IMG/VR virus record: IMGVR_UViG_3300036770_008730 | Strand: one strand, 5' to 3' | Source of the DNA: a virus | Taxonomy: Duplodnaviria; Caudoviricetes | Length of the DNA: 64,000 nt | Shown: one piece after another, positions 4,754 through 60,678 of the stretch | Layout of the letters: each line of letters opens with the position of its first letter | How positions within the stretch are numbered: the first letter of the stretch is position 1 | The notes under the pieces: model-generated | What the model was told of the DNA's origin: nothing | The model's input: the letters and a program-made list of their open reading frames with translations, nothing else | Database searches by the model: none | Made by a program: the position numbers and the translations under genes

Positions 4754-4767
4754 TTCTAAAGTATATA

Positions 4768-5082
4768 TTAAAATTTATGTGGAAAAATACTTCTCCATTC
4801 ATGTCCTTGTGGAACATCTTTAGTTCTAACTCCGAATATCTTTTTTTCAGGACAAGTGTCTTTACCATCCATTAGGAAGTTATTATTACAAGCCCAAACT
4901 TCGGCAGTTCTATTTAGAATTTGACCAACTGAGAAGGGAAATCTCATTCCAGAGTTATTTTCAATGCTGGTGATTCTACCGTCAGGTGTTTTTGTTACGG
5001 TTATTTCAAGTCTTGAATTTCTTTTATGAGTGAATTTAACTTCTCTAAGATTTAGAGATTCAAAGTTTTTAAGATGTTTCAT
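4768..5082 (-). CDS. Hypothetical protein with MKHLKNFE leader
   Basis: Leader motif; start at the second Met. Confidence 0.6.
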   Translation of the reverse strand: MKHLKNFESLNLREVKFTHKRNSRLEITVTKTPDGRITSIENNSGMRFPFSVGQILNRTAEVWACNNNFLMDGKDTCPEKKIFGVRTKDVPQGHEWRSIFPHKF

Positions 5083-5519: not shown

Positions 5520-5535
5520 AGTGTATATATTAAAA

Positions 5536-6492: not shown

Positions 6493-7071
6493 ATGGACAT
6501 TTGGTTTATTTCAGATACGCATTATGGGCACACAAACATTACCGGGTCTGATATTTCTCGTTGGAAAAGTGGATATAGAAACTTCAAAACACTTCATCAA
6601 ATGAATAAGGTTTTGGTAGATGGTATAAACAAATATGTCAAAGAAGATGATGTGCTTTATCATTTAGGTGATTGGAGTTTTGGAGGAGTTGATAACATAA
6701 AATTATTTAGAGATAGTTTGATATGTCAAAATATACACTTGATTAGAGGAAATCATGATGATAACATAGAAGGGTCTCAGATTGATTTATTTTCATCTGT
6801 TCAAGATGTACTAACTTTGAAAATTGGTAAAATGACTATTTTCCTTTCTCACTATTCACATCGTGTGTGGTTAGGTAGTCATAAAGGTGTTATTCATTTA
6901 TATGGACACAGTCATGGTTCAATTCCGGATATTGGAAAGTCAATGGATGTTGGTGTGGATGTTGCTTATAAAATGTTTGGTGAATATCGACCCTTTAATA
7001 TATCAGATATAAATAGAATTATGGAAAAGAGAGAAATACATAAAATTGATAGTCATGTTAGAGAAGAATAA
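6493..7071 (+). CDS. Calcineurin-like metallophosphoesterase
   Basis: SDTHYGH, HLGD, GNHD, HGHSH motifs. Confidence 0.88.
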   Translation: MDIWFISDTHYGHTNITGSDISRWKSGYRNFKTLHQMNKVLVDGINKYVKEDDVLYHLGDWSFGGVDNIKLFRDSLICQNIHLIRGNHDDNIEGSQIDLFSSVQDVLTLKIGKMTIFLSHYSHRVWLGSHKGVIHLYGHSHGSIPDIGKSMDVGVDVAYKMFGEYRPFNISDINRIMEKREIHKIDSHVREE

Positions 7072-7228
7072 TATAGTAAGTAAATTAGGTAAATCTAATT
7101 TGAAAATGTTAATAAATTCAATTTATGGTTCAATTCCAGGTGCTGATAATTTATGGCATAATATGTATAAAAAATATACTAGAACTGAATTTAGAAAACA
7201 AAAAATTAAAAACATTTTAAATGATTGA
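7055..7228 (+). CDS. Small protein with PolB motif-B-like segment and RxxKIxxIL tail
   Basis: KMLINSIYG followed by RKQKIKNIL; ORF overlaps both neighbours. Confidence 0.55.
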   Translation: MLEKNNIVSKLGKSNLKMLINSIYGSIPGADNLWHNMYKKYTRTEFRKQKIKNILND

Positions 7229-7844
7229 TATTTTTGATAAAAATAATATAGACCTAAGTAATATCATTTGTCATAGTGGTGGTGCTGTTGGTGCTGATAC
7301 TTATTGGGAAGAGATTGGTGAAAAGTTTGGAGTAAAGACAAGTGCTTATTCTTATAAGACTAAATATCACACTTCTGTAAATAAAGTTGAGATTAGTAAT
7401 GAAGATTTTATTGAAGGTATAGAGCAAGTTAATAAGGCAAATCTTAATCTTAAACGATATGGTATTCATAAGTTTATTAATTTACTTGCCCGAAATTGGG
7501 CACAGGTAAAATACTCAGAACAGATATTTGCTATTGGAACATTTTTAAAACCCGGTGAAAAAGATTCAAAGGGCTATGTTAATAAAGGAACTATTGATGT
7601 TGTTTCTGGTGGGACTGGATATGCTGTAATGATGGGTATTAATAATGAAAAAGAAGTATTTCTTTTTGACCAGGTTAGAGATTCTTGGTATAGATGGTCT
7701 TATACTTCAAATTCTTTTGTGGTATTGAAAAATTGTCCAAAAATTACTAAACAGAATTTTGCTGGAATTGGCACTAGAGAAATAAAACAAAATGGTATAG
7801 AACAGATAGAAAAGGTTTACGGACTTACTTTTAACAATGAGTGA
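7221..7844 (+). CDS. SLOG/YspA-like Rossmannoid protein
   Basis: HSGGAVGAD, GGTGYAV and FAGIGTR motifs. Confidence 0.55.
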   Translation: MIDIFDKNNIDLSNIICHSGGAVGADTYWEEIGEKFGVKTSAYSYKTKYHTSVNKVEISNEDFIEGIEQVNKANLNLKRYGIHKFINLLARNWAQVKYSEQIFAIGTFLKPGEKDSKGYVNKGTIDVVSGGTGYAVMMGINNEKEVFLFDQVRDSWYRWSYTSNSFVVLKNCPKITKQNFAGIGTREIKQNGIEQIEKVYGLTFNNE

Positions 7845-8118
7845 TTATTTTATAAAATATAAAAATTTAGCAATTTATGCTGAGGAGTCTCGCAAATTAG
7901 TGAGAAGAAATTACAAATGTCAAGTAGTTGCCACAGAGGCTGATACTTTATTTGATAAATATAAAACTAAGAATCCATATGCTCAATGTCGTAAATTAAC
8001 TATTGAAAGTGTTGAGAATTTGCTTCCGGTAAATCTAAAATTAGGCTTACTTGAACTGCCTGAAGTTCAAGCTTTAATCAGAGAAGATAAAATAAATAAG
8101 ATTATAGAAAATGATTAA
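7837..8118 (+). CDS. Hypothetical protein (RxxKIxxII tail)
   Basis: Overlapping operon ORF ending REDKINKII. Confidence 0.55.
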   Translation: MSDYFIKYKNLAIYAEESRKLVRRNYKCQVVATEADTLFDKYKTKNPYAQCRKLTIESVENLLPVNLKLGLLELPEVQALIREDKINKIIEND

Positions 8119-37145: not shown

Positions 37146-37153
37146 AATATATA
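37146..37153 (+). promoter_or_regulatory. AATATATA box (putative phage late promoter; representative copy of about 20)
   Basis: Same octamer lies about 5-35 nt upstream of many start codons on both strands. Confidence 0.55.
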
Positions 37154-37157
37154 CACT

Positions 37158-38440: not shown

Positions 38441-38490
38441 TAAACAACTGATGAAAACTTTTCTATAATAAAGAAAAGTTTTTTTGTTTT

Positions 38491-38991
38491 ATGAATAAAC
38501 CAAGTAAAGAAGATATAATAAACAAATGGTCATCTATTTTAGGACCTATGGGTATTACTGGATCTCAATTAGCTAATATATCTCAGTTAGTCGAAAATCA
38601 ATCAAATCACATTTTAGAAAATCAGTTAGAAAATGAAGAAGCTAGCATCGACTTTTCTTCTCTTCTACCAATTGCTATGAAAGTTGCTTCTAAAACAATC
38701 TCAAATGAATTAATATTTGCTTCTCAAGAAGAAATTGACCAAATTAAAAATAAAGTCCAATCTGAAAATCGTGATGGTAAAATTGAATCTATTGTTGAAG
38801 GTTCAGAGTTTACTGAAAAGAAATTAGAAGATGATGAAGAGTATAAAAAACTAATGAAGAAAGGAGTTTCACCTTTATCTGCTCCCTCTGGAGTATTACA
38901 TTATTTAGATTATACTTATAATGATAATTCAAAAACTAAAACACATAAGAAAACGAGAAGAGCTGGAAAAAAACATAAGAAAAATGGGTAA
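38491..38991 (+). CDS. Truncated major-capsid-protein-like (gp23 N-terminal) protein
   Basis: KWSSIL...LLPIAMKVASKTISNELI...VSPLSAPSGVLHYLDYTY; only 166 aa. Confidence 0.55.
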   Translation: MNKPSKEDIINKWSSILGPMGITGSQLANISQLVENQSNHILENQLENEEASIDFSSLLPIAMKVASKTISNELIFASQEEIDQIKNKVQSENRDGKIESIVEGSEFTEKKLEDDEEYKKLMKKGVSPLSAPSGVLHYLDYTYNDNSKTKTHKKTRRAGKKHKKNG

Positions 38992-39166
38992 ATTTGTGAG
39001 TCCTGGAGTTTATGTAAAAGAAGTTGATATCTCAACTTGGATAGTCTATAAAAATATTCAAAGAAAGAAAAAAATAGCGAAAATACTTGGAATTGATTAC
39101 TCTCCTAATGTGATTATAACTTCTACACCAAAAGGTGGTCTTGTTAACTTTCCTCAAATTTGGTAA
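38984..39166 (+). CDS. Mini-protein with tail-sheath N-terminal motif
   Basis: MGKFVSPGVYVKEVDIS; 60 aa from the ATG at 38984. Confidence 0.55.
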   Translation: MGKFVSPGVYVKEVDISTWIVYKNIQRKKKIAKILGIDYSPNVIITSTPKGGLVNFPQIW

Positions 39167-39198
39167 GAGAATCATGTTGAGTAGATATATACATTGTT

Positions 39199-39531
39199 AT
39201 GTACAATGTGTATCTCATATGCTCTGAAATCGAAGGTAAAAATCTTTACAAAATTGGATACACTAGAAGAGAAATAGAGAAACGAATAAAAGAATTCAAA
39301 ACAGGAAACGCTTCTTCTTTTTATATTGTAGATTCATTTCAATCAGAATGGGGAACAAAAATCGAAGCGAGATTACACAGAGTTTTCAATCATAAAAAAA
39401 TAAGTGGTGAATGGTTTGATCTAGATGAAAATGATATAAAAGAGTTTTCTAAAATTTGTAATTCTCTACACTCTAATTTTAAATTAATATCAACTCAAAA
39501 TACTTATTATTTAGATAGAGGTGATTTTTAA
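39199..39531 (+). CDS. GIY-YIG / T5orf172-like nuclease domain protein
   Basis: VYLI...YKIGYT...EKRIKEFKTGN...IEARLH...GEWF. Confidence 0.8.
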   Translation: MYNVYLICSEIEGKNLYKIGYTRREIEKRIKEFKTGNASSFYIVDSFQSEWGTKIEARLHRVFNHKKISGEWFDLDENDIKEFSKICNSLHSNFKLISTQNTYYLDRGDF

Positions 39532-40668
39532 TGCCTCATTTATTTTATCAATTACCATTTCAGCAGTTATTTGCTTAGTACATTCAAACTGTCTTTCTGT
39601 TCCTTTATGTAGGGGACACCAATTCCAATCTCCAGCATCTAATTTGTGAGTATTAAAGCAACCATTACAAACACTTTCATTAAAAACTCTAAATGTATTT
39701 GTTGTTGTTTCACTATATGGTTTACTAAATCCCGAAATTAAAACAACTGGTAGTCCACAAGACCAAGCTAACCAAGATAAACCAGACCCCAATCCAATAA
39801 ATAAATCACATGTAGATAAATCATCAATAACTTCTTGTAAAGACCCACCTTTGAATTTAGTAGTACCTTTTGGATGAAAGTTACCCATATATCCATCATT
39901 TTCTTTTGAATAGATAACAACTTCATATCCTATACTTTTTAAGTAATCAACTACTCTTTGCCAACCACCTGAATTATTCCAATATTTAGCCTGTGCTGTT
40001 GAGTGTAGACCTAATCCCACTTTCTTTTGTTTTTGTATATTTGGTTGTTTAAGTAGAGGTTTAATTTCAGTATATTCTAGACCAAGTATATCACAGATTG
40101 TTTGTTGTAGAGGTAGTAGTTTGAAATCTCTTGGATTTTGAGATGATTTAAATTGATCATTTTCATAATACCAACCAATTTTATACATCGCATAGATATT
40201 TTGAACTACTTGACCAGGATTTACAAATTGAATATTATTGTATTGTTCAATAAATAAATAATTGTGAAAAGTTGAAACTATAATCTCACAGTTGTGTTTT
40301 TTTCTGAACTCTTCAACATACGGAATCCAAGCTAGTGTATCACCAATTGAATTAGAATCAAATGCAATATAAACTCTTTTATTTTCAAAATTGACATTAT
40401 AATCTAAAATAATTTCTTTTGATTTAGAGTTATGAATTTTTATATTCCAATTTACAAAGTATTTGATACCTGATCTTGACCACATGTTTTTTTTCAGTTT
40501 AGATTGATAATGCAATTTACCATCATTAAACATTTGTATTGTGTATTCATCATCAATATCGCAATCAATTATTTCTACAAAAGCACCATCAACGAAATTG
40601 ATGGATATTTTAGGTAAAATTACTTTTTTGATTATTTTTTGATTTTTTGTTAAGTTATCATATATCAT
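39511..40668 (-). CDS. Aah/TibC-like O-heptosyltransferase (GT9-related)
   Basis: RVYIAFDSNSIGDTLAW, PLQQTICDILGL, STAQAKYWNN..GWQ.VVDYL, FIGLGSGLSWLAW, CNGC...CP..QFEC. Confidence 0.8.
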   Translation of the reverse strand: MIYDNLTKNQKIIKKVILPKISINFVDGAFVEIIDCDIDDEYTIQMFNDGKLHYQSKLKKNMWSRSGIKYFVNWNIKIHNSKSKEIILDYNVNFENKRVYIAFDSNSIGDTLAWIPYVEEFRKKHNCEIIVSTFHNYLFIEQYNNIQFVNPGQVVQNIYAMYKIGWYYENDQFKSSQNPRDFKLLPLQQTICDILGLEYTEIKPLLKQPNIQKQKKVGLGLHSTAQAKYWNNSGGWQRVVDYLKSIGYEVVIYSKENDGYMGNFHPKGTTKFKGGSLQEVIDDLSTCDLFIGLGSGLSWLAWSCGLPVVLISGFSKPYSETTTNTFRVFNESVCNGCFNTHKLDAGDWNWCPLHKGTERQFECTKQITAEMVIDKINEALKITSI

Positions 40669-41020: not shown

Positions 41021-41236
41021 ATGAAGATAGAAAATTATTATTTAAATTTAGAAAAAGTAAATACACTTACTAAAGAAGATAAGGATTATATTCATAGATA
41101 CTATCAAGATATGATGCATCATTTTATGGAGGGTAGAACAACTATTGCTCAATCTTTATTTCTTACTTTGATGAATCATGACTGTCTAATTGATGTTAGA
41201 GATAAAAAATTATCAAAAATCTTAGATGAAAGTTGA
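41021..41236 (+). CDS. Hypothetical protein (RDKKLSKIL tail)
   Basis: Operon-coupled ORF. Confidence 0.55.
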   Translation: MKIENYYLNLEKVNTLTKEDKDYIHRYYQDMMHHFMEGRTTIAQSLFLTLMNHDCLIDVRDKKLSKILDES

Positions 41237-41752: not shown

Positions 41753-43498
41753 ATGATAATAGGTGAGATTGGTATAAGGGGATTTAAGTCCTTTGGTAAT
41801 AACGAAACTGTACTAAAACTAAATACAGAGAAAGGAGAACTAATTCTCCTTGTTGGTAACAATGGCGCTGGTAAATCATCATTATTAGATTCTTTTGATT
41901 ATACTCTTTATGGTAAGGTTAGAGGAAAGAAAAAAAGATGGACCACTCTTTCTACTTTACCCAATCGTATAAATGGTGAATTACTTAATCGTATTAAATT
42001 CATTTCAAATTCTACCGAAGTAGAAATAAAAAGAGGTATATCTCCAAATCTTTTAGAGTTATATGAGAATGGTCTTTTAAATGAAAGAGCTGGCAAAGCT
42101 AATCTTGATGAGAAAATAGAAAAGTATATTGGTATGGATATTGAAACATTTAAATCATTTATCTCCATGTCAATTAATGATTTTAAGAACTTTATTTCAC
42201 TATCAAATGAAGAAAAACAACTACTTCTAGATAAGTTATTTAATTTAGAAGTTATCAACATTTTAAATTCTATTTTGAAAGATATTAATAAAGGAAATAA
42301 AATTAGAATGGCTTCAATTGATAGTGAAATTAAAACACTTGATGAATCAATACAGTCAATTAAAAGGTCTATTGAAAAGGCACTTGAAAGAGAAAGAGAA
42401 GAACAGAGATTAGCACTTGAAAGAGAAAAAGAAGATATTCAATTTGAGATTGATAAATTGACTACCGAGATGAGTTCAAAAAAGGATGACTACAAAACTC
42501 TTAAAGACAAAGTAGAAAAAATAAAAAATAAAGAAACCGAACTTAGTGATGAATTAGAGATTGAAAAAAAACAACATCTAAATACACAAAACGATATTAA
42601 AAATGTTCAAAAAGAAATTGACCTTTATGATTCTGGTAAATGTCCTACTTGTAAGACAGATTTCAACTCAGTTCATTTCTCAAGCTTAAGAACATCACTT
42701 GTTGATAAAAAAACAGCTTTTGAAAATATCAAATTAGAAATTGAGGAAAATATAAGAAAGATTAAAGAAAAACAACAAAAACTTAAAACACTTTCAGAAT
42801 CAACAACTACTGCTTTCAATGACTTAAACTATCTTCTTAAAAACATAAAAGCAGAAATTGATAAACTTACTCAGAAAAAAACCACACAAACAGTTTCTGT
42901 TAAATCATCACCATCAATTAATACTAAAGAATTTCAAAATACTATAGATGAGCTAAATGATAAGAGAGTTGTTGCTAAGGAACAAGATACAATCTGTAAG
43001 GAAAAAGAACTTTACTACAAAGAGTTGAATAGAATTTTTAGCGAAGATGGTGTTAAAAAGTCAATTATCTCTGGTATTATTAAACCGATTAATCATTTTA
43101 TCTCCGATAACATTAAAAAGATGTCAATGAATTTTGATGTAAGATTAGATGAAACTTTTACAGCCGAAATTAAACAACTAGGTAGTATAATTGAACACGA
43201 TTCTCTTAGTACGGGAGAAACTAAGAAAATCAATATTTCAATTTTGATAGCTTACTTAAAATTAATAAGAACAAAAAGGCATATCAATATTTTATTTTTA
43301 GATGAAGTTTTCTCTTCAATCGACATTGAGGGTATTGATTCAATTTTGACATTGTTGAAGTCGTTTGCTAACGACTACAACATTAATATATTTGTAGTAC
43401 ATCATGCTATATTAAACCAAGAAATGTTTGATAGAATAATTAAAATCAATAAAGAAGTTTTTTCCTCAATTGAAGAAGTTTTATTAGATAATATATAG
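41753..43498 (+). CDS. gp46/SbcC/Rad50-like recombination ATPase
   Basis: GNNGAGKSS, CPTC Zn hook, LSTGE signature, LFLDEVF, VVHH. Confidence 0.92.
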   Translation: MIIGEIGIRGFKSFGNNETVLKLNTEKGELILLVGNNGAGKSSLLDSFDYTLYGKVRGKKKRWTTLSTLPNRINGELLNRIKFISNSTEVEIKRGISPNLLELYENGLLNERAGKANLDEKIEKYIGMDIETFKSFISMSINDFKNFISLSNEEKQLLLDKLFNLEVINILNSILKDINKGNKIRMASIDSEIKTLDESIQSIKRSIEKALEREREEQRLALEREKEDIQFEIDKLTTEMSSKKDDYKTLKDKVEKIKNKETELSDELEIEKKQHLNTQNDIKNVQKEIDLYDSGKCPTCKTDFNSVHFSSLRTSLVDKKTAFENIKLEIEENIRKIKEKQQKLKTLSESTTTAFNDLNYLLKNIKAEIDKLTQKKTTQTVSVKSSPSINTKEFQNTIDELNDKRVVAKEQDTICKEKELYYKELNRIFSEDGVKKSIISGIIKPINHFISDNIKKMSMNFDVRLDETFTAEIKQLGSIIEHDSLSTGETKKINISILIAYLKLIRTKRHINILFLDEVFSSIDIEGIDSILTLLKSFANDYNINIFVVHHAILNQEMFDRIIKINKEVFSSIEEVLLDNI

Positions 43499-44312: not shown

Positions 44313-44504
44313 ATGATAGTTATAAAAATTGACGATAAAAATTCTCTTGAAAAAGCTCTTAAGAAATATAAGAGAAAATTTGATAATCTTAAAATAGTTA
44401 AACAACTTAGAGAGAGAAAAGAGTTCAAAAAGATATCAGTAAAAAGAAGAGAACAGATTAAAAAGGCTCAGTATATTGAGAACAAATTTAGAAATATCGA
44501 ATAA
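44313..44504 (+). CDS. rpsU: Ribosomal protein bS21
   Basis: SLEKALKKYKRK...VKQLRERKEFKKISVKRRE..KKA. Confidence 0.88.
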   Translation: MIVIKIDDKNSLEKALKKYKRKFDNLKIVKQLRERKEFKKISVKRREQIKKAQYIENKFRNIE

Positions 44505-44505
44505 C

Positions 44506-44706
44506 ATGGCTTGTCCAAAATGCGATTCTTTAAATGTGAAGCGAAGATTTTACGCGCCTGTTTCAAAATATGGTCATTTACCTACACCGCCTGTTGATTT
44601 TTGTGATGATTGTGGATTTAAATCACAAGAATCATTTAGTTCTATAAACTTCAGACATCAAAGAGATTATAAATTAGAACAAATATTACAAAATGGGGTT
44701 CAATAA
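44506..44706 (+). CDS. Small Zn-ribbon protein (RDYKLEQIL tail)
   Basis: CPKC...CDDC; start moved to the ATG at 44506. Confidence 0.55.
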   Translation: MACPKCDSLNVKRRFYAPVSKYGHLPTPPVDFCDDCGFKSQESFSSINFRHQRDYKLEQILQNGVQ

Positions 44707-54116: not shown

Positions 54117-54356
54117 TTACAAAAACTGTCTTTTACCTATATATAAATAATTGAGGACTTTCTATGTAGACTAAGAATTTTTTATTAATTTTAACCTGTA
54201 GTATTTTTATGAAAGAAATTAAATATCAAAGATTTATTGACAGACTTAGTACCTCTTTAAGAAAATCTAAAAAAAATAGATTAAGAGTTTTCCAAAGAAA
54301 AATTAAAATTATTAGCATTTTCAATTCTTAATATATAAGAAAACTTATTTATTTTT

Positions 54357-60628: not shown

Positions 60629-60678
60629 ACTTGTTTTTTTTATTTATTATGTATATATTTGTATTCTAAAATAGAATT

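Follow-up and report, generated by a model that had tools for sequence, protein, structure and literature searches.

An open reading frame in an uncultivated huge phage encodes a 60-residue protein that is a conserved, cut-down paralogue of the first ~50 residues of its clade's own tail sheath, the arm that links sheath subunits, carrying an added 'address' helix. The gene family is real and previously undescribed, while its function, which we infer to be most likely docking on or capping the sheath, is a tentative proposal from sequence and modelling. The window, the 64-kb stretch of phage DNA that was analysed, has a GC content of 29%, and the features discussed here are the following, all on the plus strand:

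38453..38483 (+), conserved A/U-rich hairpin followed by a U run, ending 7 nt before the mini-capsid start codon, terminator-like or regulatory
38491..38991 (+), 166-aa mini-capsid partner gene: three collinear pieces of the capsid-protein N-terminal region, an insert with RDGKIESIV and a basic tail, its stop overlapping the start of the mini-sheath
38984..39166 (+), mini-sheath ORF ('the mini'), 60 aa plus stop, a stand-alone truncated paralogue of sheath residues ~6-48
38993..39034 (+), residues 4-17 of the mini (FVSPGVYVKEVDIS), counterpart of the sheath N-terminal strand-exchange arm (real sheath: YKRPGIFIEEFDNS)
39062..39088 (+), residues 27-35 (RKKKIAKIL), inserted basic helix, an internal copy of the clade-wide R-x-x-K-I-x-x-I-(L/F) tag
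39107..39163 (+), residues 42-60 (NVIITSTPKGGLVNFPQIW), counterpart of the sheath segment NMVIGVSKKGPVNTPILL; the form in the window ends here, while long forms in relatives go on through the D-F-x-x-x-F-G helix of the sheath
39184..39192 (+), GATATATAC in the 32-nt spacer, candidate promoter or initiation element
39199..39531 (+), T5orf172/MUG113 (GIY-YIG-like) 110-aa gene, a constant downstream neighbour

The ORF has an ATG start, begins MGKFVSPGVYVKEVDIS and overlaps the stop of the 166-aa ORF by 8 nt (ATGGGTAA). A longer in-frame start exists at 38921, but the family alignment and the position of PG relative to the start in the real sheath favour 38984. The sheath-type pattern PG[VIL][YFW]x(2,3)Ex[DNS] occurs once in all six frames of the window, at residues 7-15 of this ORF, whereas the mean in 300 shuffles was 0.02, and the motif is kept in the family. 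The C-terminus reads TPKGGLVNFPQIW, and predicted tryptic peptides of the family include FVSPGVYVK, ILGIDYSPNVIITSTPK and GGLVNFPQIW. Searches by tblastn and phmmer with the sheath and capsid proteins of a relative identified no sheath or capsid gene in the window, which also has no terminase gene of its own but carries a gp46/SbcC-like gene at 41753-43498. The mini-capsid gene matches PHROG 138, major head protein, with E 5e-4, and the capsid protein of a relative in three collinear stretches (phmmer, E 3e-4). The downstream gene matches Pfam MUG113 (1.2e-19) and T5orf172 (9.4e-13). In contrast, no Pfam, PHROG or PDB sheath model recognizes the mini, and a search of the ESM Atlas gave no usable hit.

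A word-indexed search of 5.8 billion proteins yielded 78 clusters (at 90% identity) of 33-105 aa, and an exhaustive profile search of 1.84 billion representatives (at 50% identity) yielded 51, almost all of 32-104 aa and none fused to another domain; the two longer hits are repeat proteins and look spurious. Typical members have 54-68 aa, rarely up to ~100 aa. Among the 43 close relatives that were aligned the whole length is conserved, and G8, K30, I31, I34, I37, T46, T48, G52 and the terminal QIW are invariant. DNA scans gave 28 metagenome loci and three viral contigs of 135, 176 and 385 kb, and tblastn identified a further copy in the 642-kb phage LR756502.1, while no near-identical record was present among 50,697 phage records; relatives' sheaths were therefore used. 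The gene order is fixed: a 319-aa gene, a gene of about 105 aa, the mini-capsid gene, the mini, T5orf172, two small genes and then gp46, with ribosomal protein S21 and DnaJ genes further on in relatives. The mini-capsid gene lies upstream in all 18 loci that could be read, with overlapping stop and start, and T5orf172 follows in 27 of 29 loci, with a spacer of 28-32 nt in 26 of them and of 47 nt in one. T5orf172 is a single-copy gene both in the window and in the 385-kb relative. In 29 distinct DNA copies of the mini only the forward frame is open, the other frames carrying 0-12 stops.

The selection acting on the gene is mixed. For the same genome pairs, the mini showed a pN of 0.145, a pS of 0.245 and a dN/dS of about 0.5, compared to 0.138, 0.469 and 0.21 for T5orf172 and 0.134, 0.319 and 0.35 for the mini-capsid gene, so that the higher ratio of the mini comes from low synonymous change and not from high amino acid change. 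The codon-position pattern is weak, with mean differences of 0.149/0.180/0.215 against 0.208/0.133/0.383 for T5orf172, and about 85 nt in the 3' half are nearly invariant at all codon positions. RNAalifold found no conserved structure across the ORF and spacer, with -3.4 kcal/mol and no compensatory pair. Part of this conservation is due to K/R/I-rich coding in an AT-rich genome, which lowers pS by itself, but a constraint on the DNA or RNA cannot be excluded. Within the mini, the arm varies most (pN 0.22), and the helix (0.12) and the C-terminal part (0.14) vary least.

LR756502.1 and two of the viral contigs encode a sheath of 1283-1328 aa whose C-terminal domain matches T4 gp18 residues 481-649 (PDB, E 5e-6) and whose first 48 residues are almost invariant across 21 diverse members; this sheath family has roughly 1,200 clusters. 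We searched the profile of the mini against four relatives' records in six frames, and in three of them (LR756502.1 and the records designated G002 and G003) the few weak non-self hits included the first 20 residues of this sheath, with E 0.13-0.43 per genome. The fourth record, G001, is about 30% complete and gave no such hit. Note that this place had been named beforehand in the earlier note, so that these hits are far beyond chance. More divergent family members do not stop at QIW, but run on through P-x-x-I-x-x-x-D-F-x-x-x-F-G, which is the TPILLKNVNDLESIFG of the sheath. As evidenced by profile-profile comparison (hhalign) with the whole 1,300-column sheath alignment, these long forms align to sheath residues 6-64 with 95.7% probability and E 1e-8, with a single 10-residue gap in the sheath opposite RYSRRIKIGKIF, while the short forms gave 82.5% and E 1e-5 and the form in the window reaches about residue 48. 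The C-terminal TPKGG..NFPQIW segment thereby aligns with VSKKGPVNTPIL in the sheath. One sub-lineage has an arm (IGRYVRPGIHFIEKD) that is still closer to the real one (IGKYKRPGIFIEEFD). No DNA tract is shared with the sheath gene, and a recent gene conversion was rejected. The mini thus consists of the sheath arm, an inserted helix and the next strand-turn-strand of the sheath, and in the lineage of the window it is cut right after that.

The helix is an insertion in place of the arm-to-body linker, and it corresponds to a tag that is found clade-wide. The middle part of the profile hit a 90-aa protein in three genomes, a C-terminal piece of the capsid protein with RKRKINKIF inserted. Besides the real capsid gene of 562-584 aa, the Pfam Gp23 model finds five or six small ORFs per genome that are capsid fragments, and several of these are E-loop and spine-helix pieces that end in R-K-x-S-I-N-K-I-F; a single-sequence all-against-all search in the 385-kb relative did not recover these fragments. 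In that relative, reassembled from 20 stretches, the pattern R-x-x-[KR]-[IL]-x-x-[IL]-[ILF] occurs 38 times against 3.2 +/- 1.8 in shuffled proteins, and 29 of the 38 lie within 20 residues of a C-terminus, on small unrelated proteins. The window has 5 occurrences against 0.56 expected, not counting the mini and its partner. In most tagged proteins 0-7 residues follow the motif, but in the mini it is internal, with 25 residues following, and more basic (R-K/R-x-K instead of R-D/N-x-K). In AF2 predictions of the short and long forms, helix 16-35 with a pLDDT of about 80 was the only confident element, together with the terminal helix in long forms, and the remainder was left extended. One alignment used for folding left out a sequence from an annotated-record locus.

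The observation made in the earlier note, a 60-aa ORF with a sheath-type N-terminus directly behind a capsid-like mini gene, is confirmed. Its interpretation is likewise supported, as each descriptive claim held: the N-terminus is homologous to the arm of the clade's sheath, the C-terminal part to the KGP-containing sheath segment, the helix carries the same R-x-x-K-I-x-x-I-(L/F) motif as the capsid-like neighbour and other proteins, the pair overlaps and is conserved together in relatives, and it lies outside any sheath or capsid operon as far as the window is concerned. Lack of conservation in relatives, which would have spoken against the claim, was not observed. Co-transcription and translation of the pair remain inferences, and for the suggested interference with sheath polymerization there is only the weak co-folding result described below.

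We consider the existence of the gene family, its origin from the N-terminal ~50-64 residues of the gp18-type sheath of a clade of uncultivated huge T4-like phages, the replacement of the linker by a basic amphipathic tag helix and the pairing with a similarly built mini-capsid gene as established by the analysis, and we are confident of this identity. The protein keeps the arm (PG-V/I-Y/F-x-x-E-x-D), the following strand-turn-strand (V-I-x-x-S-x-K-G-P-x-N-x-P) and, in long forms, the D-F-x-x-x-F-G helix, but it lacks the C-terminal domain that forms the handshake platform and gives the C-terminal arm, and by inference cannot be a sheath subunit. Its expression, its binding to the sheath and its mode of action are inferred, and the mechanism that we favour is more likely than each single alternative, but remains less likely than not, as does the statement as a whole. 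In contractile tails the N-terminus of one subunit pairs with the C-terminus of its ring neighbour, and this two-stranded sheet lies on the C-terminal domain of a subunit in the ring below, while on the last ring the C-terminal strand of the tail terminator takes that place (PMC10457771). The mini would act as a microprotein whose arm would occupy this platform by strand addition on free or end-of-sheath subunits and would thereby cap, time or mark sheath polymerization, and its helix would be read by the same unknown partner that reads the tag on about 8% of the phage's other proteins. The AF2 result is as expected for a protein that folds on binding. Co-folding of a relative's mini with residues 940-1314 of its own sheath gave a score of 0.42, with 0.00 in all three controls, a pass of the weak class; the mark was reached by 58 of 80 solved complexes and 2 of 110 mismatches, but at 0.60 or under by only 7 of those 80 and by both mismatches. 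The runs agreed in at least 37% of contacts with a partner pLDDT of at least 43, and because the mini is a homologue of a segment that touches this domain in solved sheaths, the score may show likeness only. Moreover, the arm is the least conserved part of the mini while the arm and C-terminal domain of the real sheath are nearly invariant across the clade, which is not what a tight arm-platform fit predicts, and the gene lies far from the tail genes, between cargo-like genes and recombination genes.

Other explanations have to be considered. The mini-sheath and mini-capsid pair might be a decoy or competitor that presents the most conserved, exposed arms of late structural proteins and would soak up or block a host sensor that detects them, or poison the assembly of a co-infecting related phage. 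Two mimics of different structural proteins in one overlapping gene pair are in line with this, the mini-capsid gene of some relatives keeps a segment that corresponds by eye to T4 gp23 residues 93-122, the Gol region, and the arm of the mini differs from the phage's own invariant arm, as an agent aimed at others might. Defence systems that sense structural proteins and phage proteins that compete at the sensor are known, for example DSR2 with the tail tube and DSAD1 (PMC11087589). We are however not aware of a sensor for a sheath N-terminus, binding to a sensor usually triggers it, nothing in the neighbourhood is a known anti-defence gene, and tblastn against the 50,697 phage records found no foreign sheath closer to the arm of the mini than that of its own clade, so that this reading is possible, but unlikely. 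Similarly unlikely is an exapted relic, a duplicated 5' end of a sheath gene that would survive as a short leader ORF serving the expression of its neighbours, by stop-start coupling with the mini-capsid gene or signals for the T5orf172 gene, with little function of the peptide itself. The elevated dN/dS, the weak codon periodicity, the near-invariant 3' half and spacer and the constant spacer length are in its favour, but the open frame, the length and the residues invariant in the 43 close relatives aligned are kept across sequences that are 50-70% identical, the open frame, the small size and the sheath-like order of segments also in members that share under 40% identity, and the tag helix is the best conserved part and recurs on other proteins.

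That the conserved stretch is merely a DNA or RNA element with a fortuitous ORF is very unlikely: in spite of the low pS and the near-invariant third positions over about 85 nt, no conserved structure was found, only this frame stays open, indels keep the frame, and the protein-level likeness to the sheath persists in members whose DNA has diverged. A scar of a homing endonuclease, with the mini as the left-over upstream piece of a sheath gene once split or carried along by the T5orf172 gene, as mobE split nrdA in phage Aeh1, is suggested by the directly adjacent GIY-YIG-superfamily gene and its weak PHROG hit to a homing endonuclease (E 2.5e-4). This is already largely refuted, as no C-terminal sheath piece lies downstream, T5orf172 is not sporadic like a mobile gene but under strong purifying selection, the other capsid-fragment mini genes have no endonuclease beside them, and there is no DNA-level identity with the real sheath gene.

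Contractile sheaths are held together by exchanged N- and C-terminal strands, and only dedicated ring proteins, the initiator and the terminator, are known to complete that mesh. Compared to the gp18-type sheath, the mini keeps only 4-5% of the protein, without C-terminal or insertion domains, with an extra helix in place of the linker and encoded far from the tail genes. Tail terminators (XM1 gp5, T4 gp15 family), by their C-terminal strand, and sheath initiators (gp25/TssE), by their handshake domain, complete the sheet at the ends of the sheath by giving or receiving one strand (PMC10457771), as is proposed for the mini, but they are hexameric ring proteins encoded with the tail genes and show no sequence relation to it. 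The evolutionary recipe, a stand-alone copy of the contact element of a larger self-assembling protein, is that of the microProteins of plants and animals such as LITTLE ZIPPER and Id proteins, which derive from the interaction part of a larger protein, regulate it by binding and are known from eukaryotic transcription factors; no phage example was found in the papers searched, and a regulatory effect of the mini is a proposal only. P4 Sid, SaPI CpmB and PLE TcaP are likewise small proteins that bind a structural lattice and change its assembly, but they are not derived from the subunit they bind and are encoded by a parasite of the phage. The tag helix may be compared to shared terminal address tags such as the T4 capsid targeting sequence, as its motif ends about 30 unrelated small proteins of a relative.

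A conserved free-standing copy of the exchange arm, encoded next to an equally cut-down capsid protein and carrying a genome-wide address helix, would be a new kind of assembly regulator or decoy and a phage example of the microprotein principle. It also gives a handle on how 1,300-residue sheath subunits and very large capsids are assembled in order and on what reads the short terminal tags that mark a sizeable share of the small orphan proteins of huge phages, and even a relic would document how structural genes shed functional-looking fragments. A more far-reaching and rather unlikely possibility is that this clade makes a whole set of 'lattice-arm microproteins', built from strand-exchange elements of its capsid protein (N-terminal region, E-loop and spine helix, C-terminal strands) and sheath protein (N-terminal arm) and each joined to the shared helix, which would dock on the growing capsid or sheath lattice through the arm and through the helix recruit, or be handled by, one still unknown reader. 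This would give the phage a general way to cap, time or decorate its very large assemblies.

The only PDB hit of the family profile was to T4 terminase gp17 residues 281-298 (E 0.045), and motif III of the clade's terminase (IIITSTPNG) was hit in three genomes. This 18-residue likeness is treated as coincidence, as the mini has no Walker A or Walker B motifs, the same residues align in order with the sheath, long forms continue into the sheath helix, and the DNA is no more alike than shared codons explain. A frameshift fusion with the mini-capsid gene is not supported either, as the mini is in the +1 frame, the A7 run in the window would favour a -1 slip into a frame that stops at once, and the A runs are not conserved. 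No RNA data set was listed as containing the 3.6-kb stretch around the gene, and in two RNA-labelled runs with a 0.07 share and two runs from the study of a data set containing it nothing covered the mini; only a 175-nt contig lay on the T5orf172 gene, in libraries that may contain DNA, which says nothing on expression either way. In the spacer, AATATATAC is invariant in 24 relatives and lies 5-8 nt before the T5orf172 start. The hairpin upstream of the mini-capsid gene has a folding energy of -12 kcal/mol (z -3.8), with different stem letters in LR756502.1.

A C-terminal tag of the form R-(D/N)-x-K-(I/L)-x-x-(I/L)-(L/F), followed by 0-7 residues, ends about 30 small unrelated proteins of the 385-kb relative (G003, read as loci L068-L087, whole genome), where 38 motifs were found against 3.2 expected. 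The tag also ends at least 5 ORFs of the window, at 7046-7228, 7837-8118, 41021-41236, 44476-44706 and 54209-54331, against 0.56 expected. The hydrophobic spacing of the motif, with positions 4, 7 and 8 after D/N, resembles a PIP-box, by analogy of pattern alone. A related observation concerns the capsid protein. Besides the real capsid gene, each genome has five or six small ORFs that match parts of the Pfam Gp23 model, namely the E-loop and spine helix, part of the A-domain, and the C-terminal strands. The following examples (loci L052, L059-L066) come from G003 and from a second relative, G002:
G003: 81791-81994, 85134-85403, 127442-127714 and 304199-304318, small ORFs matching parts of the Gp23 model
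G002: 103039-103215, 110473-110820 and 100499-100852, small ORFs matching parts of the Gp23 model
Several of these ORFs end in or contain the same basic helix, and the capsid protein seems to exist a second time 'in pieces' scattered over the genome.

Two candidate expression signals were found. At window 38453-38483, a conserved 12-bp A/U-rich hairpin plus U run ends 7 nt before the start codon of the mini-capsid gene (-12 kcal/mol, z -3.8). It is present in all 18 relatives read and has other stem letters in LR756502.1, and it could be either a terminator of the upstream two-gene unit or a translational control element. The second is the sequence AATATATAC, which in a genome-wide analysis of G003 lies within 35 nt upstream of 47 of 478 crude gene calls, including the sheath gene. 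In the window it also lies directly before several gene starts (6 matches, 2.4 expected), and it is a candidate phage promoter or initiation signal. Positions in the window include:
37146-37154, AATATATAC
39184-39192, AATATATAC with one mismatch
4761-4769 (-), AATATATAC
5523-5531 (-), AATATATAC
60651-60659 (-), AATATATAC

With respect to gene content, a glycosyltransferase family 9-like gene (Pfam E 3.8e-6) at window 39511-40668 (-), on the opposite strand, sits between T5orf172 and the 90-aa gene. It is absent at this place in the relatives read (L004-L008, the corresponding loci of relatives), so it is a lineage-specific insertion. In the relatives, ribosomal protein S21 and a DnaJ-domain protein are encoded a few kb downstream of the mini, at L004:16152-16343 and L004:17024-17740 and at the same places in L005-L008.

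The tail sheath protein of the clade, read at L003:3822-7673(-) and L067:228-4172(+), has 1283-1328 residues and is twice the size of T4 gp18. Its ends are very conserved, with the first 48 residues nearly invariant and the C-terminal domain 82-98% identical over more than 1,200 clusters, while its roughly 850-residue middle is variable. Note that the I-I-T-S-T-P-K-G strand of the mini (window 39107-39163) is letter for letter like the coupling motif III strand of the large terminase of the clade, I-I-I-T-S-T-P-N-G (loci L012, L053 and L054), a striking resemblance that we nevertheless judge to be coincidence.
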